Shown here piece after piece: positions 6,709-51,355 of a stretch of 64,000 nt of DNA (positions within the stretch are counted from its first letter, which is position 1; the number at the start of each line of letters is the position of its first letter). Origin of the DNA: a virus (Duplodnaviria; Caudoviricetes); the IMG/VR virus record IMGVR_UViG_3300037249_000989, positions 1,016 to 65,015 of that record, one strand, 5' to 3'. The notes under the pieces are model-generated. The model was not told where the DNA came from, did no database searches, and saw nothing but the letters and a program-made list of their open reading frames with translations. The position numbers were made by a program, and so were the translations under genes.

Positions 6709-7539
6709 ATGGATAAATTAATAGATTATGAAGGTTTGGGTACTTTTCAAACAAACCTATTAAACGACAACAAAATATCTCCAATTGCAACTTGGAGTTC
6801 AGAAAAAATTAGTGATGAATTAGCAAGTAAGGCTAATATTTCTGATTTAAGTTCTTATGCAACTATATCTTATGTAACAGGTGAACTTGCTACTAAAGCT
6901 AATTTAAGTGATTTAAGTTCTTATGCAACTATATCTTATGTAACAAATGGACTTGCAGGTAAACAAAATACACTAACAGCAGGTTCGAATGTAAGTATTA
7001 CAGGAAATAATATTTCTGCTATAGGATATAGATTTGATTCATCAAAAAACAGTATTGCAATAGGTACTAATACAACAGCATCTGGTTCAAATTCTCACGC
7101 TGAGGGTAAAAATACAACAGCAAGTGATGAAGAAACTCACGCTGAAGGTGTAGATTCAACTGCTTCTGGAAATTTTTCACACGCTGAAGGAGCACGGACA
7201 ACATCATCAGGTAAAGCATCACATACTGAAGGATGGATGACATCAGCACAAAATACAGGTGAACACGCAGAAGGTATGTATAATATTTCACATAGACAAA
7301 CTCTAGGTGATGGAAGTTATGGTAATACAATACATTCCATTGGTGTTGGAAGCGCTAATATTTATAGACAGAATGCAGTTGAAGTAATGCAAAACGGTGA
7401 TATGTACGTGCTTGGTGTAGGTGGTTATCAAGGAACTAATACTAAAGTTCAAGATACTACTATTAAGACATTACAAGAATACATTGCAAGTCTTGAAGCA
7501 CGTATTGCAGCATTGGAACACCCAACAACAACAGAATAA
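6709..7539 (+). CDS. Second YadA-like fibre protein (276 aa)
   Basis: HAEG repeats; shares NAVEVMQNGDMYVLGVGGYQGTNTKVQ segment with 3357 gene; 19-aa tandem repeat near N-terminus. Confidence 0.75.
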   Translation: MDKLIDYEGLGTFQTNLLNDNKISPIATWSSEKISDELASKANISDLSSYATISYVTGELATKANLSDLSSYATISYVTNGLAGKQNTLTAGSNVSITGNNISAIGYRFDSSKNSIAIGTNTTASGSNSHAEGKNTTASDEETHAEGVDSTASGNFSHAEGARTTSSGKASHTEGWMTSAQNTGEHAEGMYNISHRQTLGDGSYGNTIHSIGVGSANIYRQNAVEVMQNGDMYVLGVGGYQGTNTKVQDTTIKTLQEYIASLEARIAALEHPTTTE

Positions 7540-7663: not shown

Positions 7664-7909
7664 ATGAAAATGAACGCTGATACCAAAGATTGGATTAAAT
7701 TTATATCATCGATAGTGTTACTTGTTGCTGGAGTTGTCCTAATTTTTATTTCTATTTATCTTCCACCAATAGGTGAAATACACACTTCTGTGCTTACTGT
7801 TATTGGTGAAATATTTACATTTGTTGGAGCTGTCTTTGGAATCGGTGAATATGCGATGATTCAGATAGCGAAAATTAATAATAAAACAGAAGATAAAAAA
7901 GAAGATTAA
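7664..7909 (+). CDS. Holin (two TM segments, charged C-terminus)
   Basis: 81 aa, two hydrophobic helices, M-K-M dual-start-like N-terminus, upstream of endolysin. Confidence 0.65.
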   Translation: MKMNADTKDWIKFISSIVLLVAGVVLIFISIYLPPIGEIHTSVLTVIGEIFTFVGAVFGIGEYAMIQIAKINNKTEDKKED

Positions 7910-8743: not shown

Positions 8744-8775
8744 TTTGGATATATCGTTTAATTTTTGTATATTTG
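8744..8775 (+). promoter_or_regulatory. Bacteroidota primary-sigma promoter (-33 TTTG, 20 bp, -7 TATATTTG)
   Basis: Exact consensus match, conserved at 41206-41237. Confidence 0.75.
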
Positions 8776-8801
8776 CACCACATTTCAAATTTTATACAAA
8801 A

Positions 8802-8927
8802 ATGACAAAGAATGACAAACCCACAGTGGACTCAATGGTAGAGCTTTTGAAGCCCGGTTTTGATGCTTTAATGAAGCAAGGAAAAATCACACAAAAAGAA
8901 TTGAAAACTAATCGTAAAAAGAAATGA
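8802..8927 (+). CDS. 41-aa TAG-free peptide overlapping endolysin start
   Basis: Conserved at 41264-41389; ATGA overlap with endolysin. Confidence 0.6.
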   Translation: MTKNDKPTVDSMVELLKPGFDALMKQGKITQKELKTNRKKK

Positions 8928-9328
8928 AATATTTCAAATTTATAGAAATGATACGTTCATCAAAAGCAGATGAATTTGGAATAGACAACTTCCCTAAATA
9001 GTGTGATATTATAGACAATATCATATTTACTATGGAGTGTCTGGATGACATACGTGAATAGTATGGCCTGCCTTTATATATTTCGTCCGGGTACAGGTGT
9101 GATGAGTTAAACAAAAAAGTTGGTGGAGTAAAAACTTCCCAACACACAAAAGGACAGGCAGCAGATATAAACTTAGGCAGTGTTGAAATGAACCGAGCTT
9201 TCTTCAACTGGTGTTGTGTCAATATTAAAAACCTGCCTATCGACTAGCTAATAGATGAATCACATTATTCTTGGGTTCATCTTAGTTTCACAAAAGAAAA
9301 TCAAAGACACCAAGTTTTACACCTATGA
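8924..9328 (+). CDS. Endolysin, peptidase M15 family (134 aa, 3 TAG=Gln)
   Basis: SSGYRCDELNKKVGG..SQH..GQAAD...WVHLS motifs; absent from the ORF track because of TAGs. Confidence 0.9.
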
Positions 9329-13449: not shown

Positions 13450-13595
13450 AATAGACCAGTTGAGTTTGTCTTAACTGGTTTTTTTAGTATAACTATGTTT
13501 GGTTTTTCTGGTTCAGGTTCTTTAGGTAAAGTTAACTATAAATTAGGTAAGGTTAGATCTAAAGTGTCTATTTGTTTAAACATAACAGGTAACAT
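13446..13595 (-). CDS. Small Pro-rich hypothetical protein (49 aa, TAG=Gln)
   Basis: Orthologue 43304-43477 keeps the frame, with synonymous changes, an in-frame insertion and the same TAG. Confidence 0.6.
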
Positions 13596-13654
13596 AAAGA
13601 ATTAGTTTGTTTAAATATTTATTGAAAAATAAAAACCACTTAACATTATTACAA

Positions 13655-13751
13655 AAAATGGTACTTTTTGTATATCTGTTTTAATTCTTTATATATTTAA
13701 TATAAACTATATCTTTTATAGGTTGCACAGATATACAGTTTGTACCATTTT
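13655..13751. promoter_or_regulatory. Inverted pair of 24-bp operator-like sites AAAATGGTAC-N4-TGTATATCTG
   Basis: 13655-13678 and inverted 13728-13751; third copy 20173-20196; all conserved in copy 2 (43537, 43611, 51431). Confidence 0.65.
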
Positions 13752-13851
13752 TAGCAAATTGAATTTTTTCCAAAATTTTCTTAAATAAATAATAAAAGAA
13801 GCAAGTTTTAGCAAATTGAATTTTTAGCAAAACGAACTTAAATAAATAATA
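13751..13851 (+). promoter_or_regulatory. Middle-promoter-like motif TTAGCAAATTGAATTTT-N-TTAAATAAATAATA (tandem pair)
   Basis: Copies at 13751, 13808, 14845, 20273, 43634, 44679, 51539, each upstream of non-structural TAG-containing operons. Confidence 0.6.
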
Positions 13852-15694: not shown

Positions 15695-15723
15695 TTATTT
15701 AAAGTTATTTTTTATTTTATTTT

Positions 15724-15759
15724 CCCATCATTTGTCGAGATGATAAGTGATGGGTTTTT
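15724..15759 (+). terminator. Rho-independent terminator at the boundary of TAG-containing and TAG-free regions
   Basis: CCCATCA...TGATGGG plus T-tract; conserved at 45643-45678. Confidence 0.75.
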
Positions 15760-15950
15760 CGTATAAAATGTTGCAAAAGCAGTCATTTTGTAAAGTGAGC
15801 TTTACATTTTTCACTTTCTGGGAACTTTTTTCAACCCGGATTTTTCCGTGTCGTGGAATTGTTATAATTTTGCAATGTCAATCAGTTAAAACATTGATTT
15901 ACGGACAATTACTGAAAATAATTAAAGTTAAACTCAAACATCAAAACATT

Positions 15951-16109
15951 ATGAAACCAGATTACGAATTTACCTGTTGTATATGCAAAAAGCATATCAC
16001 AGGAGAGTATGGCAACAACCCATTCCCGGTATTCAATGCAGGAGAATGCTGTGATGAATGTAATTACAAAGTAGTTATTCCTGCACGTCTCAAACACTTT
16101 AAACACTAA
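15951..16109 (+). CDS. Small Zn-finger protein (52 aa, TAG-free)
   Basis: CCICK...GNNPFP..ECCDEC; downstream of a TAATTTTG -7 box near 15865. Confidence 0.6.
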   Translation: MKPDYEFTCCICKKHITGEYGNNPFPVFNAGECCDECNYKVVIPARLKHFKH

Positions 16110-16114
16110 TCATT

Positions 16115-16279
16115 ATGACAAAGCAAGCTTTTAATTGCATTGGCTTATTATCTGGCCAACCTGTAGAGAAAATCACGCAAGCCCTGAATTTTCTCCAAGC
16201 ATCAGTAGTTAACGAACTGATGGAACATTTTCAAGTCAATAACAAAGCCGATTTGGCATCAAAATTAAATGCATTATGA
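16115..16279 (+). CDS. Hypothetical protein (54 aa, TAG-free)
   Basis: ATG after A-rich leader; ATGA coupling to next gene. Confidence 0.5.
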   Translation: MTKQAFNCIGLLSGQPVEKITQALNFLQASVVNELMEHFQVNNKADLASKLNAL

Positions 16280-16584
16280 TTACATCTTTTAAAATTAGTT
16301 CTCTGATGGGAGAACCCTCAATCAAATTAGAAAACGGTATTACTTTAGACCGTATGCACGGAACTGTCCTTGTGGGCAAAGTTGAGAATGACCAACTGTT
16401 ATGGATCGAGAATTTCGACAATCTTCCTGAGAAGGGTAAAGATTTGTTATTCAAAATGCTTAAGGCACGCAAGGTTATTATGAGCTTTGATGTTCAGTTT
16501 AACATTGTCACTAAAGGCATTGTTGTTGATGATAAAGCAAAACCTGAAAAACCTGAAAAAACACCGAAGCATTATGAAAGTTGA
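16276..16584 (+). CDS. Hypothetical protein (102 aa, TAG-free)
   Basis: Conserved at 46670-46969. Confidence 0.7.
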   Translation: MITSFKISSLMGEPSIKLENGITLDRMHGTVLVGKVENDQLLWIENFDNLPEKGKDLLFKMLKARKVIMSFDVQFNIVTKGIVVDDKAKPEKPEKTPKHYES

Positions 16585-16894
16585 GAACTGGACAATTCAA
16601 GAGATAACCGGGTATGTGCCTAAGACTACATTCTATATGGATTTCAGTATAGCAGACCAGTTCGGAACCAGTGCCATTCAAGATACTTATAACAGAGCAT
16701 TTGAAAGCTGGAAGTCCAATGTTGAGTACCTGACAGAATTGGTAATGGTTCTGAACTGGAAGATTTGGAGATGGCACGGACACAAAGAAGATTATGCCAC
16801 ACTATATGATAAGCTTTGGAAGCAAGCAGACCAGTATTGTATGGACAATCTCAAAGGTTCAGATTTAACGTATTATATTCAAACCACAGACTGA
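16574..16894 (+). CDS. Conserved hypothetical protein (106 aa, TAG-free)
   Basis: Near-identical at 46959-47279. Confidence 0.75.
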   Translation: MKVENWTIQEITGYVPKTTFYMDFSIADQFGTSAIQDTYNRAFESWKSNVEYLTELVMVLNWKIWRWHGHKEDYATLYDKLWKQADQYCMDNLKGSDLTYYIQTTD

Positions 16895-16895
16895 T

Positions 16896-17075
16896 ATGGC
16901 ATCACCACTAACATCAGAATGTTTAAAAGGACTAGGCTGTCCACCCGGTGTAGATTTAAGAGAGTGCACCAAATGGCCTAATAACTGTCCACTAGTCCAC
17001 ATACAAGGTAGTGATATTATTCTGGAAAGTCCGCAACAGAAGTTATTTAGAGATAACTCAGATGACCCAGAATGA
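16896..17075 (+). CDS. Cys-containing hypothetical protein (59 aa)
   Basis: Conserved at 47281-47460. Confidence 0.55.
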   Translation: MASPLTSECLKGLGCPPGVDLRECTKWPNNCPLVHIQGSDIILESPQQKLFRDNSDDPE

Positions 17076-17113
17076 TGCTAAACTGATAAGTAATATAATT
17101 TATTAGCAAAAAG

Positions 17114-17141
17114 AAAAGAGAGCTTTCAGGGCTCTCTTTTT
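17114..17141. terminator. Bidirectional terminator between convergent early operons
   Basis: AAAAGAGAGC-TTTCAGG-GCTCTCTTTT; identical at 47499-47525. Confidence 0.85.
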
Positions 17142-17144
17142 AAT

Positions 17145-17321
17145 TTAGAATGGAAATAAGTTGGGATTGTTATGCTTTAGTCTGTACATATAAACAGGTG
17201 ATAGGTTTTTAACCAGATAACGAAGATAAAGCCGGTAATGTGTCGGTTTTTTCAGACCTGAACGACACCAGTTTAATTTACCGGTATTATATAGTTTGCA
17301 ACGAATACTAAATGGGTTCAT
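17145..17321 (-). CDS. Basic hypothetical protein (58 aa), variable cassette
   Basis: ATG directly downstream of the 27-bp repeat; absent from copy 2. Confidence 0.55.
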   Translation of the reverse strand: MNPFSIRCKLYNTGKLNWCRSGLKKPTHYRLYLRYLVKNLSPVYMYRLKHNNPNLFPF

Positions 17322-17329
17322 AATATATA

Positions 17330-17356
17330 ACAGTTTTTACCGAGTGTCTCTCGTTT
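17330..17356 (-). repeat. 27-bp cassette repeat (minus strand AAACGAGAGACACTCGGTAAAAACTGT)
   Basis: Also at 48216-48243 and 48434-48461; CGAG-N5-CTCG hairpin just upstream of start codons. Confidence 0.8.
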
Positions 17357-17400
17357 TACGTTATTTTTTATTTTGTTCTGGTTATTAAGGATTGGAGATG

Positions 17401-17625
17401 TTACTCTCCAATCCAAGATATAAGTTCTCCGTTCCTAAAATCGAAGATGTGAAATAATTGGTAGGTTTCTCCGTTCATTTTAACGATTTCTCCGATTTGG
17501 ATGTTGGATTGGTTTTGGGGTCTCATCCGTTTGATTCCTTGATTTTTGGTGAGGTTGTAAAAAATGTACAGTTTCTCCTCATCACTCTTTTTAATTCTCT
17601 CAACAATAAAATTTTTCTTTTCCAT
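17401..17625 (-). CDS. Hypothetical protein (74 aa, TAG-free)
   Basis: Orthologue at 48516-48752. Confidence 0.7.
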   Translation of the reverse strand: MEKKNFIVERIKKSDEEKLYIFYNLTKNQGIKRMRPQNQSNIQIGEIVKMNGETYQLFHIFDFRNGELISWIGE

Positions 17626-18922
17626 AATTTTAAAATTTTTAAATTAAACATTTCAATTAACTTTACGGAAATGGTATAACGGAATCAGAAAAAAGTTTGG
17701 TTTGGACCCTAAAAAAGTTATAAATTCATAACAGGAGGAAATAAAAACTTAAAGATAGTATATAAAATTCATTCTAAGATACCAGATTTGACACCAGACA
17801 CACCGAAATAACCCAGTAATATAAATTATTAGGCTAGCAGAAAAGAAGTCCCCAGAATCAAATTATAATCTGGGAACGAAAAGCAGTAAGAAACGAATCA
17901 GGTTTGCCTTATATTAACAGATTAACGAAAAACGTATATATAAGAACCAGAATTTGCCTGATATAAACTAATAAAAAAGAAATAAATTCAGATACACTCA
18001 GATATAAAGAAAGATAGATATATAACAGATACACCCAATATATAAAGTAAGTAAAGAGATAGAGTAATAAAAAACACACAGGACGCATTAAATCAGGTAA
18101 TATATATAAATCTATAATACAGATAGTTTGAAGTCACCAGAATGTGAATATGGACTATCAGGAATATTTTTAAATATTTAATATACTCACGGAAATCGGA
18201 TATCCGGCTAATGTGCTGATACTAGTTAAGGATAGGGAATAGTAATAGAAATAAAGCATTCTAATAGGTTTAGACTTGTTCAGAAGAATCAGGAAATCGC
18301 AGGAACGCGGGATATCTGGCCCTCTGGGCCTTAGTTTTTACATATAATTTTAATTTGGAAAAAACTGAAATAAATAATATGAACCATTTTATTTGGTTCA
18401 AAAATAAATTTTTTCATTGATAATTTTTAATTAATTTTTTAAGGGAGTTAAACCTGCGACAGGCTAAGCTCCCATTTTTTTGGGCACAATTCAGATTTTA
18501 TCAATTATAATATAATTGATAATTATATACTATATTGACCTAAAACAGGCGATTACCTGACCACCGAGCTACGCTCATTAGCAGATTTATCGCAATAATT
18601 CCAATAATTCCATTTAATCAGATTACTCAGCCACGACCGATTATCTCATTTTGCTAGTGGATCAGGTAATCAGATGTTCAGATGAATCGGGTTTCCGGTT
18701 TTTCTGCTAATCTGCTGGTCTGTCTCCTTATATATACGCGCGTATTGGGAACCTAAAATTAGGGCAAACTCGTATATAATTATCAATAGTATTAGACCAA
18801 AGCTAACACCCTGAAAATCACTGGAATAAAAGTGCATTTTTTCGTCATTTTTTTGTCTAAAAATTTTCATATGTCAAAAATTTTTATTAAATTTGCAATG
18901 TATTTTAAAAACAGTAAAACAT
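17626..18922. other. Conserved palindrome-rich non-coding region (candidate att/junction, origin or packaging region)
   Basis: No conserved ORF; strongly similar to 48753-50164; 25-bp and 12-bp palindromes, 15-bp inverted repeats, CAGAT motifs. Confidence 0.55.
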
Positions 18923-20095
18923 ATGAAAAAGTTAGACCAAAAGCACCAACAAAATGTGATTTACATTATTATGCACGCAAAGGAAATCTTCACTAAGCTA
19001 AGATGGCCAAACGGTGTAAGATGCCCTTATTGTGGTGAAGTTCATTGTTGGACCTATAAGAATGGTATGCACAAGTGCTCTAAATGTGGAAAGCGTTTTA
19101 GTGACACCAGTAACACTGTTTTTCACGGAACAAAGATTCCTATTGCTTCGTGGATTGTGGCTCTCTATTTGATTACAATGAGCAAAGGATGCAGTTCTGA
19201 AGAGCTTTCAGCTTATACAGGTATAACGCAGAAGTCTGCTTGGTTCTTATTACATAAAGTAAGGGAAGCATTCAGACCAGATGGAACTGTATTAGATGGT
19301 GATGTAGCTGTAGATGAAGTTTATTTAGGTGGCAAATGGTCTAGTATAATATTGCCTAAGAAGATAGATATTCTTAAGCGTTATGGTTTATGGTATGAAG
19401 GTGACAAAGAGAGAACCTGGCACAAAAAGAATATACGTAGAGCAATATCTGAATATAAGCAACCTGTCTATGGAATGAATGATGGCAAGAATATTGTACT
19501 GATGGCAGTTCCTAATAGGTTTGATTCTAAGGACCTGTTAGATATTACATTAAAGCATACAGGTAATATTCAGCACTTAGTTAGTGACCAATCTATATTA
19601 TATAAGGAGATTGCAGAAACAGGTATTGATGTGATCCAAATGAACCATAGTAAACGAGAGTTCCATAATGGTGAATATTCGAGTAACAGAATTGAAGGAA
19701 CCTTTAGCCATTTGAAACGCAGATATAGATGTCATTATGTGAGACCTGAAAAAAAATATATCCAGCTCTATCTGAATGAATTTTGTTTCAGATGGAACCA
19801 TAGAGACAATACTAGTATAGAGAGATTAGCTGATAGTATTGGTTTATGTGTCACCAGAGGACGTGTAACTAATAAGGATATATATAACTATAATTGGTTA
19901 AGTTCGTATCACCAGAGGAAACCTAAACGTAGAGAGACTTTAGAAGAATGGTTTGAAATAGGATGGCCACCTTATGCAGAATCAATGGAAGTTCAAGGTG
20001 TTGTATATACTAAAGAACGGTTTAATGAACTAAAAGCACAATGGGAAGCTAAAAGAGATATATGGCATATAGATGAAAGCGAACTAGTTTTTTAG
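18923..20095 (+). CDS. IS1595-family (ISXO2-like) DDE transposase
   Basis: Zn-ribbon CPYC/CSKC, VAVDEVYLGG, VSDQ, NRIEG, YLNEFCFRWN; no internal TAG; -7 box TAAATTTG upstream. Confidence 0.9.
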   Translation: MKKLDQKHQQNVIYIIMHAKEIFTKLRWPNGVRCPYCGEVHCWTYKNGMHKCSKCGKRFSDTSNTVFHGTKIPIASWIVALYLITMSKGCSSEELSAYTGITQKSAWFLLHKVREAFRPDGTVLDGDVAVDEVYLGGKWSSIILPKKIDILKRYGLWYEGDKERTWHKKNIRRAISEYKQPVYGMNDGKNIVLMAVPNRFDSKDLLDITLKHTGNIQHLVSDQSILYKEIAETGIDVIQMNHSKREFHNGEYSSNRIEGTFSHLKRRYRCHYVRPEKKYIQLYLNEFCFRWNHRDNTSIERLADSIGLCVTRGRVTNKDIYNYNWLSSYHQRKPKRRETLEEWFEIGWPPYAESMEVQGVVYTKERFNELKAQWEAKRDIWHIDESELVF

Positions 20096-20349
20096 TTTAA
20101 ACTAAGTAGGTAGTTCCATTGTTAAACATTAAATAGAAACAATAAATAATTCAGTATTAAATAATGTGCCATAAAATGGTACATTCTGTATATCTGTTTT
20201 AATTATTATATATATTATATATACTATATAAACTAGTTTAGCACCCAAATTTTTAAACCTACGTTAGACCCTTTAGCAAATTGAATTTTGACCAAAATTT
20301 TCTTAAATAAATAATATATAGAAACAATAAAAATTAAAACTCACACATT

Positions 20350-20502
20350 ATGATTACATTATTATCTATAGCATCTGTTTTAGCAACAGTATTAAACGTT
20401 ACTATTATTTTTGGAGCAGGTTATGTAACTGCATACTACATCCAATATTTAAAAAACAAAAATTCAAACATCACATTAAATGAAAAATCCAAAGAAGCTT
20501 GA
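20350..20502 (+). CDS. Small membrane protein (50 aa)
   Basis: Hydrophobic N-terminus; conserved in copy 2. Confidence 0.55.
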   Translation: MITLLSIASVLATVLNVTIIFGAGYVTAYYIQYLKNKNSNITLNEKSKEA

Positions 20503-22504: not shown

Positions 22505-23728
22505 ATGAACATACAATTACCGAAAATGTTTGGTTGGCAATAGAAGGTTTTCTTAGGGTTGAAGAACCATTGGAAAGATTCTATTCACGTAGTCAAGTCA
22601 AGACGTCAGTGTGGCAAGTCAATTTTAGCAGAATTGATTGGAATGTTTTATTGCATACAATAGAAGAACTTTAGATGCTATATTATTGAGCCAACATTCA
22701 ACCAAGCAGATAAAGTTATGAATGAAGTTTGGAAGATGTGTAAAGGCCAACCATTTTATTATAAAAAGAACGATATAAAAAGATAGTTACTATTCAAGAA
22801 CGGTGCTGAAATACGATTGTTCTCGGCTGAGCAAGGTGTAGATGCATTACAAGGTTATACGTGTGAGTTGCTGATAATAGACGAAGCTGCATATTTAAGT
22901 GAAGATATTATTGATGCAATATTTCCATATGTGAATACTACTAAAGGACCTATTGTAATGTTCTCTACCCCACGTACAAAGTCCGGATAGTTCTATAATT
23001 ATTATTCGATGGGATTAAGTGGAGATGAAAATATTTATAGTTACGACTGGGCACGTGAAGACGTTTCTGAATTACTTAGTCCAGCTAAACTTGAATTGTA
23101 CCGAAAAACTGTTGACCCATTAAAATTCAAAAACTATTATTTAGGAGAATTCTTAAATAACGAATCTGATTTCTTTGGTGATTTCTCACAATGTGTCAAA
23201 GACAAGCCAAGTATTTTTTGTATGGAACCAGTAGTATTTGGTATAGACTGGGCTGGTTCAACTGGTGGTGACTACACTGCTATTTCTATTATTGGACTTA
23301 GTGGACAACTTTATGATATTAAATATTTCAATGACAAGGATCCAAAACAAACTATTGCTGAAATATTAAGATTGGTTGCATAGTATAAACCTAAAAAAGT
23401 GACGGTTGAAACAAATTCAATTGGTAATATATACTTTGGTTTGCTTAGAGACGAATTGAAAATGCGAAATGTTCCGTTAATTGGGTTTTACACAGATAAT
23501 ACAAGTAAAGATAAGATTATTTCTAAGTTACAGGTTGCTTTTCAGAATAATAAAATTATGATTTATACTGACTACGAACTAATGGATGAACTTCAATATT
23601 ATGAGTTAACTTATAGTAAAACTGGGAAACGTGTATTTAATGCTAAGACTGGACACCACGACGATGTTCTGATGTCGTTAGCAATTGCATATAATTCGTT
23701 AACTTCTGGAAACTATGATGTTTGCTAA
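22505..23728 (+). CDS. terL: Terminase large subunit (407 aa, 5 TAG=Gln)
   Basis: Walker A KSRRQCGKS, Walker B LLIIDEAA, GIDWAG nuclease motif, HDD. Confidence 0.9.
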
Positions 23729-24513: not shown

Positions 24514-24974
24514 TGGAACAAACTACTGAAATAAGAAATATATGTGAGCAAATTGCTTAGGTTTACCGAGATAAAATGAGTAATGCCGGGTATGATCCAA
24601 ATGGTGAACTAATGAAGTTTACTTGGGTGACAGAATTAAACGGTAATTTATTTGAATTGTACTTCAATCTTCCGGACTATTGGTAGTATGCAGAAAATGG
24701 TAGAAGACCAGGAAAGTTCCCTCCACCTGATGCAATACTAAAATGGATTCAATTTAAACGATTAGTACCAAGACCCGGAAGAGACGGAAAAGTTCCAAGT
24801 ACAAACCAATTGGTTTATTTAATATCAAGAAAGATTGCATTACACGGAACTGAAGGTAAACATTTGCTTCAACAAACTATAGACGAAACATATGATAATT
24901 TAGTTGACAGATTGGTTGAAGCTATTACAAACCAAATTGAAAATGAATTAGAAAAAGATATAGAAGAAATATGA
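24513..24974 (+). CDS. Neck/tail-completion protein (153 aa, TAG=Gln)
   Basis: ENGRRPGKFPP..ILKWI motif typical of phage morphogenesis proteins. Confidence 0.6.
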
Positions 24975-26164
24975 AATACTTAAACGAACGAATCACTCAA
25001 CAAATAGACTTAGGTAGCCTTCAAGAAAAAGGTGTGTATAAATATGAAGTTCAAGTTTCAGATAAATTTGAACAGAGTGGATGGTGGACAATATTTGTTG
25101 GTAACTATTATAATAACAGAGAGCGTTATCACACATTTGATATTACCGATTTATGTCGAAGCAGAAAAAGAAATATACATACTTCTTTTGGAAAAACATT
25201 TGATACTGATGATTTTACTATTGAACAATATAGAATAATCGTTACAAAAAGTGATGATACGACTGTTACAGGTTCAGCAATAACTGTAGCGCATATTTAT
25301 CCATATCCAAATGTACAAAAATCTACACTTTCAATGCGGCCTTCAAATGTATTTTTTGAAATTATAGATGGTTCAAAAAAAGATGTTAGTTTATTGCTAC
25401 AGGGTAACAACAGATTTAGAACAGGAACTAATAATATATACCTTTGTCCAAAATATCCAATGGTTAATAATGAACTAGACTTAGATGAAAATTATACAAT
25501 GACATTTGGTGCTGCTATTGAAATTGGTAGTGCAATAGGTGATGTTACTTTTTTTACAGTTGAAGCAGGTGCAGATTATACAGATACTGATGAATGGTAT
25601 GGTTCTTACAGTCTAGAGAATTTAGGTCGTGAAGGTTATTCTCATACATTTTTTAGAAGTTATGGTTATTTCTTAAACACAGATAGTAAAGGCGGTGTAC
25701 CAATGAATCTTGATTATTGGGTTTATATGACGTGGAAAAATGTTAATAATGTTAGCCAATATCGTAGAATAGCCATTATTGAAGCTTGCAAAAGCAGATA
25801 CTATTTATTATGGCAAGATAGATTTGGAAGTTATCAAAGCCAACCATTTAACGGTAAAATGGAGTATTCCGAAGATATTACAAATAGTGAATATGTAAGT
25901 TATACTGGAAACCGATACAAATATAATGTACAAGTGCAGCCAAAATGGAAACTCAATTCTGGTTGGTTAACAGAAGATTTATTCCCATTTTATGAAAGTA
26001 TTTATGTTAGTCCTATATTGAAACTATATGATACTGAAACACAAACAGAATATGATGTTATTCTTAACGATAAATATACTGAAAAGAAATATGTCAATGA
26101 GAAAAAGTTATTGAGCATAGAATTAAACTTAGAAGCAACTGAAAAACAAAATATTATTTACTAA
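24971..26164 (+). CDS. Tail protein (397 aa)
   Basis: C-terminal YYLLWQDRFG...WKLNSGWL region shared with 56230-57819. Confidence 0.6.
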   Translation: MKYLNERITQQIDLGSLQEKGVYKYEVQVSDKFEQSGWWTIFVGNYYNNRERYHTFDITDLCRSRKRNIHTSFGKTFDTDDFTIEQYRIIVTKSDDTTVTGSAITVAHIYPYPNVQKSTLSMRPSNVFFEIIDGSKKDVSLLLQGNNRFRTGTNNIYLCPKYPMVNNELDLDENYTMTFGAAIEIGSAIGDVTFFTVEAGADYTDTDEWYGSYSLENLGREGYSHTFFRSYGYFLNTDSKGGVPMNLDYWVYMTWKNVNNVSQYRRIAIIEACKSRYYLLWQDRFGSYQSQPFNGKMEYSEDITNSEYVSYTGNRYKYNVQVQPKWKLNSGWLTEDLFPFYESIYVSPILKLYDTETQTEYDVILNDKYTEKKYVNEKKLLSIELNLEATEKQNIIY

Positions 26165-31689: not shown

Positions 31690-32001
31690 ATGATATACTT
31701 AGACGATAATATATATATTCCAAACTTATTAGGAATTGACTCATCACTTTATTCAATAGAAATAGTGAATAATGTTACTAATGAGAAAATCATTTTGGAT
31801 GCATCAAATATTTCAAATAATGAATTATATTACTAGTTCAATTTAGATGTGTCTGGAATGCCCCAGAATGAATATACGATAGTTTTATATGATGATTCAT
31901 CTTAGTGTTTGGGTAAATATTTAGCACAAAAAGGAATTAGTGATGAAGTACACAAGACTTCATTTGAAAATGATACAAAATATATTCAATTCGAACTATG
32001 A
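31690..32001 (+). CDS. Hypothetical virion protein (103 aa, TAG=Gln)
   Basis: Follows late motif; orthologue at 63029-63337. Confidence 0.6.
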
Positions 32002-32579
32002 AATATTATTACATAGACATAAATGATAATGAACTTGGTTTACAAGCTATTTCTTTAGTTGATAAACCTGCAATAGAGCAAGACTTTTTGTTATTTAGTG
32101 ATGAACATATTTGTTTCGCTAAAGATGATGAAAAACAAATCATTTCCGGGCCTGCACTAATAGCAGAAATGCCTATTTATAGACGTAATGCTAAAGGTGA
32201 AGAATTTTATGTTATCTTCAATAAAGAAACTATTGCAAAGTTGGTTGAAAGATACAGCAAAAATGGTTTATTTAATATTGTAAACCTTCAGCACGACCAC
32301 AGTTTGTTTACCGAAAATGCAATCTTAGTTGAATCTTACTTTATCGACAAAGAACGTGGAATTGCACCTAAAGAATATGGAAGTTTGACAGATGGATCTT
32401 GGGTAGTTTCATTTAAAATCGAAGATAAAGAATTATGGGAACAAATTAAAAATGGAAATGATTTGAATGGTTTTTCTGTTGAGGTTGCCGGACACTTGGT
32501 TGAAAAATTTGAATCAGAAAAAACCGATACCCCGGAAGATGAAATAAATAAATTGATAGATGAAATATTGGAAAAATGA
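31998..32579 (+). CDS. Prohead protease, XkdF-like
   Basis: AISLVDKPAIE...GSWVVSFKI..LW..IK.G.LNGFSVE. Confidence 0.75.
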   Translation: MKYYYIDINDNELGLQAISLVDKPAIEQDFLLFSDEHICFAKDDEKQIISGPALIAEMPIYRRNAKGEEFYVIFNKETIAKLVERYSKNGLFNIVNLQHDHSLFTENAILVESYFIDKERGIAPKEYGSLTDGSWVVSFKIEDKELWEQIKNGNDLNGFSVEVAGHLVEKFESEKTDTPEDEINKLIDEILEK

Positions 32580-32621: not shown

Positions 32622-33140
32622 ATGATGAATAGCAAACTTTTAAAACTCGCTCGTATGGTTATGAACTTAGCTGAAGTTGAAACTGACAAAGCTAAGCTTA
32701 TCATTGAAGGCGAAGCAGAAGTTGGTAAAGAGGTTTTTGTTGAAGACGAAAATGGTGAACTCGTTGCTCCAGAAGATGGTGAATACATTGCTTCTGAAAA
32801 CATTTTAGTAATTGCTGATGGCAAAATTGCTGAAGTACGTGAAAAAGAAGCAGAGGAAGCTCCAGCAGAGGAACAACCTGAAGAACCAGTTGAAGAAGAA
32901 CAAGAGGAACAAGAACCCGAACAACCAACCGAAGAAGCTCCAGCTGAAGATGAAAAAGATGCTGAAATTGCTAAGCTTCAAGCACAAATTGAAGAACTTA
33001 ACAATATTATAGCTGAAAAAGACGAAGAAATCGGCAGACTTAAAGCTGAATTAGAAAAATCTGATGCAGAACCTGCTGAGGAACAATTAAAATCACAAAA
33101 AACTGAAACAAAGTCTTGGGTTTATAAGCCAAGATTCTAA
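32622..33140 (+). CDS. Capsid scaffolding protein
   Basis: Acidic, coiled-coil protein between protease and capsid. Confidence 0.65.
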   Translation: MMNSKLLKLARMVMNLAEVETDKAKLIIEGEAEVGKEVFVEDENGELVAPEDGEYIASENILVIADGKIAEVREKEAEEAPAEEQPEEPVEEEQEEQEPEQPTEEAPAEDEKDAEIAKLQAQIEELNNIIAEKDEEIGRLKAELEKSDAEPAEEQLKSQKTETKSWVYKPRF

Positions 33141-45908: not shown

Positions 45909-46544
45909 ATGGTTATGAACCTCATCAATCGCAGAAATTATTTCCTTACACTTATAGGTGAAAAACCTGTAAAGTATAGTGAGTATGAAATTTCTTCGCA
46001 AGTACGTAAGAACTCAGTGACTGACCTTGAAAGTCAAATGAAAAGCCTTGAGCATTCTATCAAATTAGCAGAAACTAAAACTGCTGCTGATAAATATTGG
46101 GCAGAACATAAAGAAGAAAAACAACAGCTTATTGACAAAAAAGCAGAGATTGGTGCAGGTTACAAACAGGTTCAAGAGCGTTACCTTGAGAAATTTAACA
46201 AGTTGGTTGAATCTATGAACATGCACGTAACACATATGTCAACCACTAATATTGAAATTTCATCTAATGTAAATCCTCGTTATCACTTTGATATATACTA
46301 TAATGCAAACTGGGGTGAAGATAATCGCGAGATTAAAATAAACTATCCTTGCTATGGTAGTTTTAACCCTGCTAAAGACCGTGAAATGAGTGATTATTTA
46401 ATGGCAATGGCGGTGTTTGCATACAACCTCAGATTGCAACAGGAATTTAAAGAGGCTTTGGACCAATTCAATGATGAAATGGAAGCCATTAGAAAAGCTG
46501 TTAATGAAATTGACAACTATATTAAAAACCCAATTAATCTCTAA
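45909..46544 (+). CDS. Hypothetical coiled-coil protein (211 aa, TAG-free), copy-2 specific
   Basis: Long ORF replacing the two small genes at 15951-16279. Confidence 0.7.
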   Translation: MVMNLINRRNYFLTLIGEKPVKYSEYEISSQVRKNSVTDLESQMKSLEHSIKLAETKTAADKYWAEHKEEKQQLIDKKAEIGAGYKQVQERYLEKFNKLVESMNMHVTHMSTTNIEISSNVNPRYHFDIYYNANWGEDNREIKINYPCYGSFNPAKDREMSDYLMAMAVFAYNLRLQQEFKEALDQFNDEMEAIRKAVNEIDNYIKNPINL

Positions 46545-46549
46545 TCATT

Positions 46550-46666
46550 ATGACCCAAATTGAATTAGAAGCTTATAACGCTGTTAAGCGTATGGCAAAA
46601 GAACTTGAAACTCTCAATAAAAATATTGAGAAACTAATCGAATGTTTAACTAATAAAACCAAATGA
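46550..46666 (+). CDS. 38-aa coiled-coil peptide
   Basis: ATG after CATT leader; heptad pattern. Confidence 0.45.
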   Translation: MTQIELEAYNAVKRMAKELETLNKNIEKLIECLTNKTK

Positions 46667-46669
46667 ATT

Positions 46670-46969
46670 ATGATTACATCTTTTAAAATTAGTTCTCTGA
46701 TGGGAGAACCTTCAATTAAATTAGAAAACAGTATTACTTTAGACCGTATGCACGGAACCGTTCTTGTTGGCAAAGTTGAGAATGGCCAACTGTTATGGAT
46801 CGAGAATTTCGACAATCTTCCTGAGAAGGGTAAAGATTTGTTATTCAAAATGCTTAAGGCACGCAAGGTTATTATGAGCTTTGATGTTCAGTTTAACATT
46901 ATCACTAAAGGTATTGTTGTTAATGACAAAGCAAAACCTGAAAAAACTCCTAAGCATTATGAAAGTTGA
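46670..46969 (+). CDS. Hypothetical protein (copy 2)
   Basis: Orthologue of 16276-16584. Confidence 0.7.
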   Translation: MITSFKISSLMGEPSIKLENSITLDRMHGTVLVGKVENGQLLWIENFDNLPEKGKDLLFKMLKARKVIMSFDVQFNIITKGIVVNDKAKPEKTPKHYES

Positions 46970-47279
46970 GAATTGGACAATTCAAGAGTTAACCGGGTAC
47001 GTGCCTAAAACCACATTCTATACAGATTTCAGTATAGCAGACCAGTTCGGAACTAATGCTATTCAAGATACTTTTAACAGGGCATTTGAAAGCTGGAAGT
47101 CCAATGTTGAGTACCTGACAGAATTGGTAATGGTTCTGAACTGGAAGATTTGGAGATGGCACGGACATAAAGAAGATTATGCCACACTATATGATAAGCT
47201 CTGGAAGCAAGCAGACCAGTATTGTATGGACAATCTTAAAGGTTCAGATTTAACGTATTACATTCAAACCACAGACTGA
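46959..47279 (+). CDS. Conserved hypothetical protein (copy 2)
   Basis: Orthologue of 16574-16894. Confidence 0.75.
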   Translation: MKVENWTIQELTGYVPKTTFYTDFSIADQFGTNAIQDTFNRAFESWKSNVEYLTELVMVLNWKIWRWHGHKEDYATLYDKLWKQADQYCMDNLKGSDLTYYIQTTD

Positions 47280-47280
47280 T

Positions 47281-47460
47281 ATGGCATCACCACTAACATC
47301 AGAATGTTTAAAAGGACCAGGATGTCCACCCGGTGTAGATTTAAGAGAGTGCACTAAATGGCCTAATAACTGTCCATTAGTCCACGTACAAGGTGACAGT
47401 ATTATTTTGGAAAGTCCACAACAGAAGTTATTTCCGGATATACAGGATGACCCAGAATGA
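47281..47460 (+). CDS. Cys-containing hypothetical protein (copy 2)
   Basis: Orthologue of 16896-17075. Confidence 0.55.
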   Translation: MASPLTSECLKGPGCPPGVDLRECTKWPNNCPLVHVQGDSIILESPQQKLFPDIQDDPE

Positions 47461-47528
47461 TGCGAAACTGATAAGTAATATAATTTATTAGCAAAAAGAA
47501 AAGAGAGCTTTCAGGGCTCTCTTTTTAA

Positions 47529-48206
47529 TTATAGGTAATTTTCCTGTTTATATGATTGGGTCTTCCAATATTTAAGTTCCGGCTTCTCCGCAACAACAAC
47601 CGGTTCATATCCTTGTTTCAAAAGGCCATTACGGGTTATGTTCTCGCGCATCCAGCCTAGTGCAAAGTCTGAATATATGTGCTTTTTCCATCCGTTACTG
47701 TACAAGGAACTCATAAATGCAGAGACTTGGTTTCCTTTCAGTTTAGACAGGGTTTGTGCCAACTGCATATTTGCAAAACTGCGATTGTGGCTGTTATTCA
47801 TTATCGGACTGAAATCTCTTTCAGTACTTTTTAAAGCATCCTTGATGAACTCGTATGCCATATCATTCCAGAACTTCTCGTTCAATTGCTCCAACAGACG
47901 GTAATTGAAGTTCTGTTCGTCCTTTTTGCCGTTGACCCATAAATTTCCGGTCAGGATATTTTCAACAGAGAATGGCATATAGTACCCTTCGTAAGCGAAG
48001 AAATGATTGTTCTTGCTGAAATAGGTTGAGTTGCAATAGTCCTCGATATGGGAACAGGAAATTTTGGGATTGTCTCTGTGTGCATCTGCGATGCTGTTAT
48101 AAATTTTAGTTGCATAATTGTAGTTTCCCTTTTCGTCAAACTCACCTTTGATAGTCCACACTTTTGGGCTGTTTTCGAATCGGTCTAATAATTTTTTTGT
48201 TGCCAT
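47529..48206 (-). CDS. Variable cassette gene, 225 aa, possible NUMOD1-like HTH N-terminus
   Basis: YNSIADAHRD..ISCSHIEDYC..FFAY pattern; preceded by the 27-bp repeat. Confidence 0.6.
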   Translation of the reverse strand: MATKKLLDRFENSPKVWTIKGEFDEKGNYNYATKIYNSIADAHRDNPKISCSHIEDYCNSTYFSKNNHFFAYEGYYMPFSVENILTGNLWVNGKKDEQNFNYRLLEQLNEKFWNDMAYEFIKDALKSTERDFSPIMNNSHNRSFANMQLAQTLSKLKGNQVSAFMSSLYSNGWKKHIYSDFALGWMRENITRNGLLKQGYEPVVVAEKPELKYWKTQSYKQENYL

Positions 48207-48241
48207 AATTTTAAGACAGTTTTTGCCGAGTGTCTCTCGTT

Positions 48242-48424
48242 TTAAAATTTTTTATTGTTATCAGTTATAATTTGAGCCGGACCTACGTTAATAGTGATAG
48301 ATACCTGTGCATTCGGATTTAAACGGTTCAGTTCTGATATAAGTTTATGGAACTCGTTAACCGTATAATTTGGAATTGTCAGATCACAAGAATCTGATTT
48401 GATAGTTACGTTTTTGATACGCAT
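48242..48424 (-). CDS. Variable cassette gene, 60 aa
   Basis: Lies between two 27-bp repeats. Confidence 0.6.
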   Translation of the reverse strand: MRIKNVTIKSDSCDLTIPNYTVNEFHKLISELNRLNPNAQVSITINVGPAQIITDNNKKF

Positions 48425-48515
48425 AATTTTGGGACAGTTTTTGTCGAGTGTCTCTCGTTTTAAGTTTATTTTTTATTTTGATTAGTTTATAGTTTGGACC
48501 AGAGAACTGGAGATT

Positions 48516-48752
48516 TTACTCTCCAAGTTCTCCTGTATAAAGGATCATTTGTCCGTTTGGTCGATCGAAGATCTGGAGTAAAATGTAGGTTTCTCCGTCC
48601 ATTTTAACGATTTCTCCGATTTGGATGTTGGATTCTCCTGATTTCGGTCTCATCCGTTTGATTCCTTGATTTTTAGTGAGGTTGTAAAAAATGTACAGTT
48701 TGGGTTCATTACTTTTTTTAATCTTTTTAATAACAAAATTTTTACTCATCAT
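48516..48752 (-). CDS. Hypothetical protein (copy 2)
   Basis: Orthologue of 17401-17625. Confidence 0.7.
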   Translation of the reverse strand: MMSKNFVIKKIKKSNEPKLYIFYNLTKNQGIKRMRPKSGESNIQIGEIVKMDGETYILLQIFDRPNGQMILYTGELGE

Positions 48753-50164
48753 AATTTTAAAAATTTTAAAAATTTAACATCATTTAATTTCGAGAATGTT
48801 ATTACGGAATCAGAAAAAAGTTTGGTTTAGGCCCTAAAAAAGTTGTATAATCTTAAAAATAGTATATTTCTTCTTAATAATCGTATATAAAAATTCATTC
48901 TAAGGTACCAGATTTGACACCAGACACACCGAAATAACCCAGTAATATAAATTATTAGGCTAACAGAAAAGAAGTCCCCAGAATCAAATTATAATCTGGG
49001 AACTAAAAGCAGTAAGAAACGAATGGGATGTGCCTTATATTAACAGATTAACGAAAAACGTATATATAAGAACCAGAATTTGCCTGATATAAACTAATAA
49101 AAAAGAAATAAACTCAGATATAGATATATAAGATACAGAGATAATACACCTATAATATAAATAAAGCAAGCAAGTAAATTTTATATAATAAGATAAATCA
49201 CTCCAGGACACATTAAATCAGATAAGATATATAAATCTATTATACAGATAGTTTCGAATCACTAGAATGTGAATAAGGACTATCAGGAATATTTTTAAAT
49301 AATTTATATACTCACGGAAATCGGATATCCGGCTAATGTGCTGATACTAGTCAAGTCTAAGGAATAATAATAGAAATAAAGCATTCTAATAGGTTTAAGT
49401 TTGTTCAGGTTCTTCAGGAAATCGCAGGAACGCGGGATATCTGGGCCCTCTGGGCCTTGCTAAGTGCACATAATTTTGTTTGAAAAAAAAATCGCAAATT
49501 TTGAAACTTTTTCAGATTCCAGAATAACATATAAGTCTCATAGTTATTAAGGGAGCTAAATCCGAGATGGACTAAGCTCCCATTTTTATTTAGGTTTGCC
49601 GATTTTATCAATTATAATATAATTGATAATTATATACTATATTGACCTAAAACAGGCGATTACCTGATTACCGAGCTACGCTCATTAGCAGATTTATCGC
49701 AATAATTCCATTTACTCACCAAAAGCCAATAATCAGATTTGGTTAAAGAATCAGATTACTCAGATTGGATCAGATTGGATCAGATAATCAGATGAATCGG
49801 GTTTCCGGTTTTTCTGCTAATCTGCTGGTCTGTCCTATTATATACGCGCGTATTGACATAATGACAAATGTCAATTTTAGGACAAACTTGTATATAATTA
49901 TCAATAGTATTAGAACCCATTCTGGTGCATCCAATTCAATTTTAGGTTAAAATGTCAAAATGATACAAAAACAATCATTTTTGTAACACACTTTTGAAAA
50001 GCCCTATAGGTTTTTCGAATGGTCAGTTACATTTTGTAAACTATTTTGAATAAAAAGTATCATAATGACAAAATGACTGCTAATGTGCATTTTATTGTCA
50101 AAAAATTTTCATATGTCGAAAATTTTTATTAAATTTGCAATGTATTTTAAAAGCAATATAACAT

Positions 50165-51355
50165 ATGAAACCATTAGTTAAAAAGCTTGACAAAAAGCAC
50201 CAACAAAGCATCATTTACATCACCTTACACGCTAAGGAAATCTTCAATAGGCTAAGATGGCCAAACGGTGTAAGATGCCCTTATTGTGGTGAAGTTCATT
50301 GTTGGACCTATAAGAACGGTATGCACAAGTGCTCTAAATGTGGAAAGCGTTTTAGTGACACCAGTTCAACCCTTTTTCACGGTACTAAGGTTCCTATTGC
50401 TTATTGGTTAGTCGCTCTCTATTTGCTTACAATGGGCAAAGGATGCAGTTCTGAAGAGCTTTCAGCTTATTTAGGTATAACACAGAAGTCTGCTTGGTTC
50501 TTATTACATAAAGTAAGGGAAGCATTCAGACCAGATGGAACTGTATTGGAAGGTGATGTAGCTGTAGATGAAGTTTATTTAGGTGGTAAATGGTCTAGTA
50601 TAATACTGCCTAAGAAGATAGATATTCTTAAGCGTTATGGTTTATGGTATGAAGGTGATAAAGAGAGAACCTGGCACAAAAAGAATATACGTAGAGCAAT
50701 ATCTGAATATAAGCAACCTGTCTATGGAATGAATGATGGTAAGAATATTGTATTGATGGCGGTTCCTAATAGGTTTGATTCTAAGGACCTGTTAGATATT
50801 ACATTAAAGCATACAGGTAATATTCAGCACTTAGTTAGTGACCAATCTATATTATATAAAGAGATTGCAGAAACAGGTATTGATGTGATCCAAATGAACC
50901 ATAGTAAACGAGAGTTCCATAATGGTGAATATTCGAGTAACAGAATTGAAGGAACTTTTAGCCATTTGAAACGCAGATACAGATGCAACTATGTGAGACC
51001 TGAGAAAAAATATATCCAGCTCTATCTGAATGAATTTTGTTTCAGATGGAATCACAGAGATAATACCAGCATAGAGAGATTAGCCGATAGTATTGGTTTA
51101 TGTGTCACTAGAGGACGTGTAACCAATAAGGATATATGTAACTATAATTGGTTAAGTTCGTATCACCAGAGGAAACCAAAACGTAGAGAGACTTTAGAGG
51201 AATGGTTTGAAGCAGGTATTAAATGGCCTGACATATATAGTAGTATGACAATACAAGGTGTAGAATATACTAAAGAAAGATTTGAAGAACTAAAGTCTAA
51301 ATGGGAAGCTAAAAGAGATATATGGCATATAGATGAAAGTGAACTAGTTTTTTAG
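50165..51355 (+). CDS. IS1595-family DDE transposase (copy 2)
   Basis: All catalytic and Zn motifs intact; same locus as 18923. Confidence 0.9.
   Translation: MKPLVKKLDKKHQQSIIYITLHAKEIFNRLRWPNGVRCPYCGEVHCWTYKNGMHKCSKCGKRFSDTSSTLFHGTKVPIAYWLVALYLLTMGKGCSSEELSAYLGITQKSAWFLLHKVREAFRPDGTVLEGDVAVDEVYLGGKWSSIILPKKIDILKRYGLWYEGDKERTWHKKNIRRAISEYKQPVYGMNDGKNIVLMAVPNRFDSKDLLDITLKHTGNIQHLVSDQSILYKEIAETGIDVIQMNHSKREFHNGEYSSNRIEGTFSHLKRRYRCNYVRPEKKYIQLYLNEFCFRWNHRDNTSIERLADSIGLCVTRGRVTNKDICNYNWLSSYHQRKPKRRETLEEWFEAGIKWPDIYSSMTIQGVEYTKERFEELKSKWEAKRDIWHIDESELVF

Follow-up and report, generated by a model that had tools for sequence, protein, structure and literature searches.

A TAG-free gene block beside the attachment site in a TAG-recoded, tRNA-less lineage of temperate rumen phages

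We analysed a 64,000-nucleotide stretch of DNA (hereafter the window), which corresponds to bases 1016-65015 of one 65,015-bp virus record (IMGVR_UViG_3300037249_000989) that contains no other contig. It belongs to a lineage of temperate tailed phages of about 33 kb of cattle-rumen Bacteroidales, in which TAG encodes glutamine in most genes. One group of genes at 15951-20095 is free of in-frame TAG, and this block is the module for lysogeny or integration and for early functions of a code-15 temperate phage, written in the standard code and readable by the unmodified ribosome of the host. Taken together, our explanation, to which we give an even chance of being right, is that of a code-15 temperate phage with a host-readable TAG-free block and a lytic programme that is locked by the genetic code.

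Under translation table 11 the genes of the window are broken up, while reading TAG as glutamine gives a dense co-directional gene set across it. The large terminase (TerL; 22505-23728, plus strand) contains 5 in-frame TAGs and matches phrog_2 (3.9e-39) over residues 7-401; the family matches of the portal (1108-2247, 2 in-frame TAGs) and the endolysin (8924-9328, plus strand, 3 conserved in-frame TAGs) likewise span their TAGs, as do those of the methyltransferase, the HNH endonuclease, the tape-measure-like protein, the protease and the capsid-like protein. Self-comparison of the contig showed that the gene order is present twice, head-to-tail (contig 1-33646 and 33647-65015, the unit junction falling at window 32631/32632), with the two units 65-94% identical, depending on the segment. 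Opposite the TAGs, the orthologues in unit 2 or in the relative G002 have TAG in 68 instances, CAA in 20, CAG in 6 and GAA in 7, with any other codon occurring at most 3 times. Because CAA and CAG dominate among the orthologous codons that differ (26 of 63 differing pairs, the next being Glu with 9), TAG is assigned to glutamine; in-frame TAGs thus lie within full-length conserved genes and at positions that are Gln in relatives, as expected of a code-15 genome. The claim of an earlier, sequence-only reading of this DNA that the replication-side, sigma-like, packaging, tail and lysis genes need TAG read-through is borne out, as most genes are indeed recoded. Outside the block TAG takes about 18% of glutamine positions, with up to 5-7 TAGs per gene. 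A programmed read-through context was ruled out, since base frequencies from -9 to +12 around TAG are the same as those around CAA and CAG, and TAG acts as an ordinary sense codon in the recoded genes. As a separate observation, in-frame TAGs in the code-15 genes of unit 1, unit 2, G002 and an integrated relative (described below) are more numerous in the first two deciles of gene length (43 and 43) than elsewhere (about 27 per decile); such an excess over the first fifth of gene length would fit a lock that acts early in translation, but these counts come from related genomes and are not independent.

The six open reading frames (ORFs) of the block (15951-16109, 16115-16279, 16276-16584, 16574-16894, 16896-17075 and 18893-20095, all on the plus strand) contain 0 TAG against 29 CAA/CAG codons, whereas the other 35 genes of unit 1 contain 63 TAG against 291 CAA/CAG (Fisher p=0.0075). 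The trinucleotide itself is not depleted in the other frames of the block genes, where it occurs at 10.7-22.4 per kb, and wherever unit 2 or G002 has an orthologue of a block ORF, that orthologue is TAG-free as well. The same TAG-free block is found in the second genome copy at 45909-51355 (plus strand), where Pfam gave no match for its ORFs. The TAG-free state of both regions, claimed from the letters alone, is therefore confirmed by the glutamine codon counts and by the TAG-free orthologues. The split between TAG-free and TAG-bearing genes is a tendency and not absolute: outside the block, TAG is also absent from the genes at 6709-7539, 7664-7909, 8745-8927, 24971-26164, 31998-32579 (protease) and 32622-33140, and several virion genes are among them. 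GC content in the block is 0.35-0.41, compared with about 0.30 elsewhere.

The largest gene of the block (18893-20095, plus strand) encodes a transposase of the IS1595 family, with a zinc ribbon and a DDE domain (PF12762, 4.2e-19; PF12760, 6.4e-9; both exceeding the curated cut-offs). The gene belongs to the core of the lineage, occupies the same position in every relative, and has no in-frame TAG in any of them, down to 63% protein identity. Its stop codon (window 20093-20095 and 51353-51355) is TAG in 5 of 7 sub-lineages and TAA in 2. Once the code is switched, the transposase would acquire a tail, variable and 3-25 residues long, which might inactivate it or might mean nothing. Since the transposase gene adjoins the attachment junction described below, and none of the scanned genes was recognised as an integrase, the DDE transposase itself is the candidate for carrying out integration.

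An integrated relative was reached via a 269-aa terminase fragment in the ENA contig NODE_264 (98,915 bp), which holds a complete 31.5-kb phage with a GC content of 0.29 and a TerL 65% identical to that of the window. Past the phage, the GC content rises to about 0.52-0.55, and the DNA carries grpE, dnaJ and 15 further host genes, including glycosyltransferases, an S8 peptidase, a tRNA methyltransferase and toxin-antitoxin genes. A non-integrated copy of this phage (L022, 98.5% identical) matches NODE_264 until 22 nt past the transposase stop codon; beyond this junction, L022 runs on into the opposite phage end and NODE_264 into host DNA, just upstream of grpE-dnaJ. The junction region in NODE_264 corresponds to L023:8361-10000 and is equivalent to window 18893-20120, so that by its position the intergenic stretch at 20096-20479 of the window should hold the phage attachment site (attP). 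NODE_264 begins exactly 55 nt before the junction point, which is expected if the assembly graph holds both the circular and the integrated forms. No terminal inverted repeats are visible between the two ends of the prophage, for which a single host junction was assembled, and the bacterial attachment site (attB) could not be placed, because none of the three nearest genomes aligns with the DNA upstream of grpE. In the integrated relative the TAG-free block lies at the prophage end, with the only recombinase-like gene. The lineage is therefore temperate. The window unit itself had been called a prophage in the sequence-only reading, and this we cannot follow: the 65-kb contig holds no host DNA, and integration is seen in the relative only.

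The host DnaJ encoded on NODE_264 is 76-78% identical to that of three Bacteroidales genomes of 2.0-2.3 Mb and about 60% identical to that of other Bacteroidales, compared with 47-49% for the two Firmicutes genomes tested. This Bacteroidales host reads the standard code: of the 17 host genes, 12 stop at TAA, 4 at TGA and 1 (dnaJ) at TAG, and 6,016 codons of the host flank contain no in-frame TAG. The three nearest genomes (G190, G053 and G404) all have prfA, the gene of release factor 1 (RF1), above the curated cut-off. G190 has 40 tRNAs, with Gln-CUG and Gln-UUG among them and no tRNA-CUA, and a pattern search for a CUA anticodon with a T-loop in all three genomes matched only tRNA-Arg(UCU). 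Host TAG usage and a host tRNA-CUA, which the earlier reading had proposed to check, were thus examined in the relative's host, and TAG proved to be a stop there, with no tRNA-CUA in the nearest genomes.

No suppressor tRNA was detected in the phage by any search. ARAGORN found no tRNA in the window, nor in the whole contig treated as linear or circular and with introns allowed, and at relaxed thresholds it returned only noise, none of it common to G002. Rfam searches gave one chance match at E<=1 over the 64 kb, with no tRNA, tRNA-Sec, transfer-messenger RNA (tmRNA) or intron, and none of these at E<=10 over 17000-18950. Pairs of T-arm and acceptor halves separated by as much as 3 kb, and cloverleaves of the 7/5, 8/4 and 9/3 types with U33-CUA-R37, gave nothing above chance in the window, G002 or the integrated relative; these scans require near-perfect stems, so that a very degenerate form could escape them. 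A six-frame search for the RF-1 domain (PF00472), PCRF (PF03462) and a class-Ic synthetase of the GlnRS/GluRS type (PF00749) gave no match either. The earlier statement that the unit has no tRNA, synthetase or release factor gene therefore holds, with ARAGORN, Rfam and the domain searches in agreement. The same absence extends to the relatives, as no tRNA, release factor or synthetase domain of the GlnRS/GluRS type was found in the complete 33.4-kb relative and about ten others, and none of 26 related or flanking loci yielded a tRNA. Among 50 records of the wider terminase clade (27-42% identity), 45 are without a tRNA, the other five have Met, Thr and other ordinary anticodons, and a CUA anticodon occurs in none. 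The two observations that would speak against gating by the code, namely a tRNA-CUA in the unit or its host and a host that itself uses code 15, were both looked for and neither was made, with the host evidence coming from the relative.

A side observation concerns many relatives of about 30 kb in IMG/VR (L076-L111 and L124-L127, mostly from one sample, terminase 34-39% identical), which have a TGA-recoded look. Their ORF coverage is 0.5-0.85 under table 11 and about 1.0 when TGA is read as tryptophan, and standard-code relatives of the same GC content show no such gain. They too are without tRNAs.

To hypothesize on how such a phage might work, in a lysogen or a freshly infected cell RF1 would truncate most virion proteins and almost every replication-side, regulatory, packaging or lysis protein, and until the code changes, gene products would come from the block and from a handful of other TAG-free genes alone. 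The genetic code would then act as a lock on the lytic programme, and the key to it would be a TAG-free factor encoded by the phage, not a tRNA, which would make decoding of UAG by the host efficient, e.g., by blocking RF1 or retargeting the host tRNA-Gln. Such a non-tRNA factor is our leading guess, and a tentative one; it is placed first because tRNAs are missing from the lineage and from most of the wider clade. Candidates are few, since any key encoded by the phage must itself be TAG-free, and the phage has roughly fifteen TAG-free ORFs in total. The first candidate is the 102-aa ORF at 16276-16584 (plus strand), because it is confined to the TAG-recoded lineage, where it has 40 homologues of 57-93% identity, and the other TAG-free ORFs, with those at 7664, 8745, 9844 (minus strand), 24971 and 32622 among them, form the short list. 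It has a conserved motif, W-ENF-NLPE-GK...ARK...SFD-EFN, it is absent from 47 more distant relatives that are standard-code or TGA-recoded, and its AlphaFold model (predicted local distance difference test, pLDDT, 77) gave no fold match (Foldseek E>0.1, VIA Z<5). The neighbouring 106-aa ORF (16574-16894, plus strand) is a member of a large family (938 clusters at 50% identity) for which there is no Pfam, PHROG or NCBIfam model, and a role specific to recoding is unlikely because the family is so broad. Some of its members are fused to the polyvalent-protein domain LPD11 or to DUF7659, and AlphaFold models it as a helical bundle (pLDDT 95.7) with no match in the PDB. A protein atlas search with these two ORFs returned no usable match. 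More broadly, it is possible, at less than even chances, that the meaning of UAG is switched here without a suppressor tRNA of the phage's own, either by a small TAG-free protein such as an RF1 antagonist or by a tRNA-CUA from another element. Given the tRNA-less, TGA-recoded-looking phages in the same terminase clade, a tRNA-independent switch could be general.

Several points weigh against this explanation. Integration is seen at one junction, in a relative, and a chimeric join is possible there. The host data come from that relative's host. The avoidance of TAG in the block is seen in one genome with only 29 glutamine codons there, and the other genomes, being related to it, add no independent samples. 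The narrow distribution of the 102-aa ORF cannot be separated from phylogenetic distance, and neither homology nor fold searches tie any block ORF to translation. RF1-deficient E. coli reads UAG by near-cognate tRNAs inefficiently; such reading is hardly enough for proteins whose genes have 5-7 TAGs (TerL, for instance), and a simple RF1 blocker may not suffice. Biochemically, a cognate tRNA-CUA from somewhere would be the simpler answer. The code-gated lytic programme put forward in the sequence-only reading therefore stands in part: the TAG-free block at the prophage end in a standard-code host speaks for it, while its source of read-through, said to be a factor from the early ORFs or the non-coding DNA, or else a helper phage, has found no support, as no result points to any of these.

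A cognate decoder would have to come either from outside or from a gene that standard tools miss. In the former case, a suppressor tRNA-CUA supplied in trans by a co-infecting or resident code-15 phage, or a mobile tRNA borne by the host, would gate the lytic programme. Borges et al. raised this possibility (10.1101/2021.08.26.457843), no relative has a tRNA to do the work itself, and the use of TAG as a normal sense codon, up to 5-7 times per gene, calls for an efficient cognate decoder. To us this source is almost as probable as the non-tRNA factor encoded by the phage. Against it, the phage brings a full complement of genes for packaging, head, tail and lysis (terminase, portal, protease, capsid-like protein, tape-measure-like protein and endolysin), unlike helper-dependent satellites, and the lineage is widespread, with runs from 14 studies and more than 100 terminase variants, while unit-length circles suggest that it replicates autonomously. 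A single 75-nt tRNA gene would end the dependence, yet none is found in any relative, and the genomes nearest to the relative's host have no tRNA-CUA to offer. That the phage encodes a non-canonical suppressor tRNA (intron-split, permuted, allo-tRNA-like or edited) is unlikely, although Borges et al. suspect undetected tRNAs of this kind (10.1101/2021.08.26.457843) and 1.8 kb of non-coding DNA adjoins the transposase gene, where one might lie. ARAGORN with introns and very low thresholds gave nothing conserved, the Rfam search of the non-coding stretch returned no tRNA, tRNA-Sec or group I/II intron even at E<=10, and the split-half and cloverleaf scans stayed at chance level. What is conserved in the non-coding DNA among TAG-recoded relatives is a palindrome and a terminator only. 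The sole strong fold, a 147-nt one at 18538-18684 on the minus strand (z -4.2), was tried as an RNA gene and rejected, because it is made of TCAGAT repeats and its stems are lost in G002 and unit 2.

It is scarcely credible that the host itself decodes TAG, as a code-15 bacterium or through a chromosomal amber suppressor, in which case no switch would be needed. The flank of the relative's host has no TAG in frame and its dnaJ ends in one, the three close genomes have RF1 and no tRNA-CUA, and the phage transposase itself stops at TAG in most sub-lineages. The remaining alternative is that the TAG-free block has no regulatory meaning and reflects chance or composition, for example recently acquired genes of higher GC content. 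The small number of glutamine codons behind p=0.0075, from one genome, would allow for it, and so would the higher GC content of the block and the several virion genes that lack TAG too. We consider this very unlikely, however, because the orthologues in unit 2 and G002 are TAG-free, with the transposase remaining so down to 63% identity, because TAG is frequent in the other frames and even ends the transposase gene, and because Borges et al. found the same pattern statistically for the integrases of Garnet and Topaz (10.1101/2021.08.26.457843).

Small TAG-recoded phage clades are already known, with genomes of about 34 kb in Garnet and Amethyst and about 22 kb in Topaz, and recoded prophages occur in standard-code Prevotella (the Garnet host) and Oscillospiraceae, with integrases that avoid TAG (Borges et al., 10.1101/2021.08.26.457843). 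No more than 40% of the TAG-recoded genomes had a detectable suppressor tRNA in that study, where the code was proposed as a lysis-lysogeny switch and recoding as a possible means of sensing co-infecting phages via their suppressor tRNAs (10.1101/2021.08.26.457843). In the study of Cook et al. 2024 (PMC11210395), 375 of 715 table-15 phages (52%) had a Sup-CTA tRNA, and the mechanism was called not fully understood. The TAG-free module, the frequent lack of a suppressor tRNA and the sensing of co-infecting suppressors have therefore all been published before (Borges et al.; Cook et al.). The present lineage resembles Garnet, Amethyst and Topaz in reading TAG as Gln, in its animal gut habitat, in its recoded structural and lysis genes and in its TAG-free recombination gene. 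To Garnet and Amethyst it can be likened further by size, code and Bacteroidales host only, and like Garnet in Prevotella it forms prophages in standard-code Bacteroidales. What is less ordinary here is the DDE transposase in the integrase's place together with the lineage-wide lack of tRNAs: an IS1595-type enzyme lies at the attachment site instead of an integrase (Borges et al. nowhere use the word 'transposase'), and tRNAs are missing throughout the lineage and not in scattered members.

The crAss-like and Lak code-15 phages, which have a Sup-CTA tRNA of their own, similarly use TAG as a sense codon in late genes within a standard-code host, but the present phage has no tRNA, RF2 or synthetase and its genome is 3-15 times smaller. 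Its transposase shares the zinc ribbon and DDE architecture of IS1595 insertion sequences (ISXO2-like); unlike these, it is encoded by a conserved core gene that is present once in a 33-kb phage and lies beside the attachment site, and no terminal inverted repeats were seen at the prophage ends, of which one junction is assembled. If a helper were involved, a co-infecting phage would be needed for the lytic cycle, as in P4 and the phage-inducible chromosomal islands (PICIs), which take virion genes from their helper, whereas this phage encodes its own virion and packaging set and only decoding would be borrowed. About half of the TAG-recoded phages have no detectable suppressor tRNA and their translation is unexplained (Borges et al.; Cook et al.), and the lineage offers a compact test case, with a complete 33-kb genome, a temperate life style, a standard-code host, tRNA-free relatives and few TAG-free ORFs. 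Should a protein or an outside tRNA prove to be the key, this would be a new form of lysogeny regulation and a new tool for the control of amber suppression, while a hidden tRNA, if found, would make the case ordinary.

Regarding the window itself, its two-copy structure is probably due to two diverged, co-occurring strains that the assembler joined via a shared repeat, rather than a real tandem. This is likely for the following reasons: the contig breaks inside one of the few long exact repeats common to both units (100 plus 127 identical bases around the unit junction, 227 bp in all); the colinear relative is a single 33,452-bp record with an end overlap of 150 bp and an estimated completeness of 100%; and many terminase homologues lie on contigs of 31-33 kb. 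The first 11 bases of the contig are identical to its last 11. The DNA sequencing runs that contain the phage come from bovine, sheep and other gut metagenomes, with no RNA runs among those listed. A search of an isolate phage collection found no close relative, and a terminase search of species genomes found only distant ones (33-43% identity) on contigs of metagenome-assembled genomes of mixed taxa, which indicated no host.

Apart from the 102-aa and 106-aa ORFs, the small-ORF operon of the block consists of three TAG-free ORFs on the plus strand: a Cys-rich one of 52 aa (CxxC...CxxC; 15951-16109), which is absent from unit 2 and has no Pfam, PHROG or NCBIfam match, one of 54 aa (16115-16279), and a Cys/Pro-rich one of 59 aa (16896-17075). 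The operon ends in a terminator at 17110-17145 (plus strand), a GC-rich hairpin followed by a T run, as judged from the sequence with the hairpin aligned. Next to it, two antisense TAG-free ORFs at 17145-17625 (minus strand) are possible moron genes, of which that of 58 aa varies between copies and that of 74 aa is shared. The non-coding stretch at 17626-18892, within the 1.8-kb region upstream of the transposase that has no convincing ORFs, contains no tRNA-like element. It does contain a perfect 21-bp palindrome at 18500-18520 (ATCAATTATA-A-TATAATTGAT), which is kept even in distant relatives, and an array of TCAGAT repeats at about 18540-18700, between the palindrome and the transposase gene. 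When the 1.8-kb region was compared with more distant TAG-recoded relatives, only the palindrome was conserved, and the stretch looks like operator, iteron or promoter DNA for the transposase gene.

Elsewhere in the unit, a conserved island at 13450-13550 was considered as an RNA gene and rejected, as it consists of a terminator and, after it, the first part of a small Gly-rich ORF. This ORF (window 13486-13600, beginning MFGFSGSGS) lies just past the terminator of the HNH gene and is kept down to relatives with 65% terminase identity. For the Bacteroidetes promoter motif TTTG-N18-21-TAnnTTTG, 6 occurrences were counted with 4.3 expected, which is no enrichment and gives no hint of the host. 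A repeat of about 150 bp, 76% identical between its copies, occurs at 13652-13804 and 20170-20327, upstream of two operons, with TTTAGCAAATTGAATTTT...AAATAAATAATA motifs repeated after it, and these repeats with their motifs are candidate phage-specific promoters.

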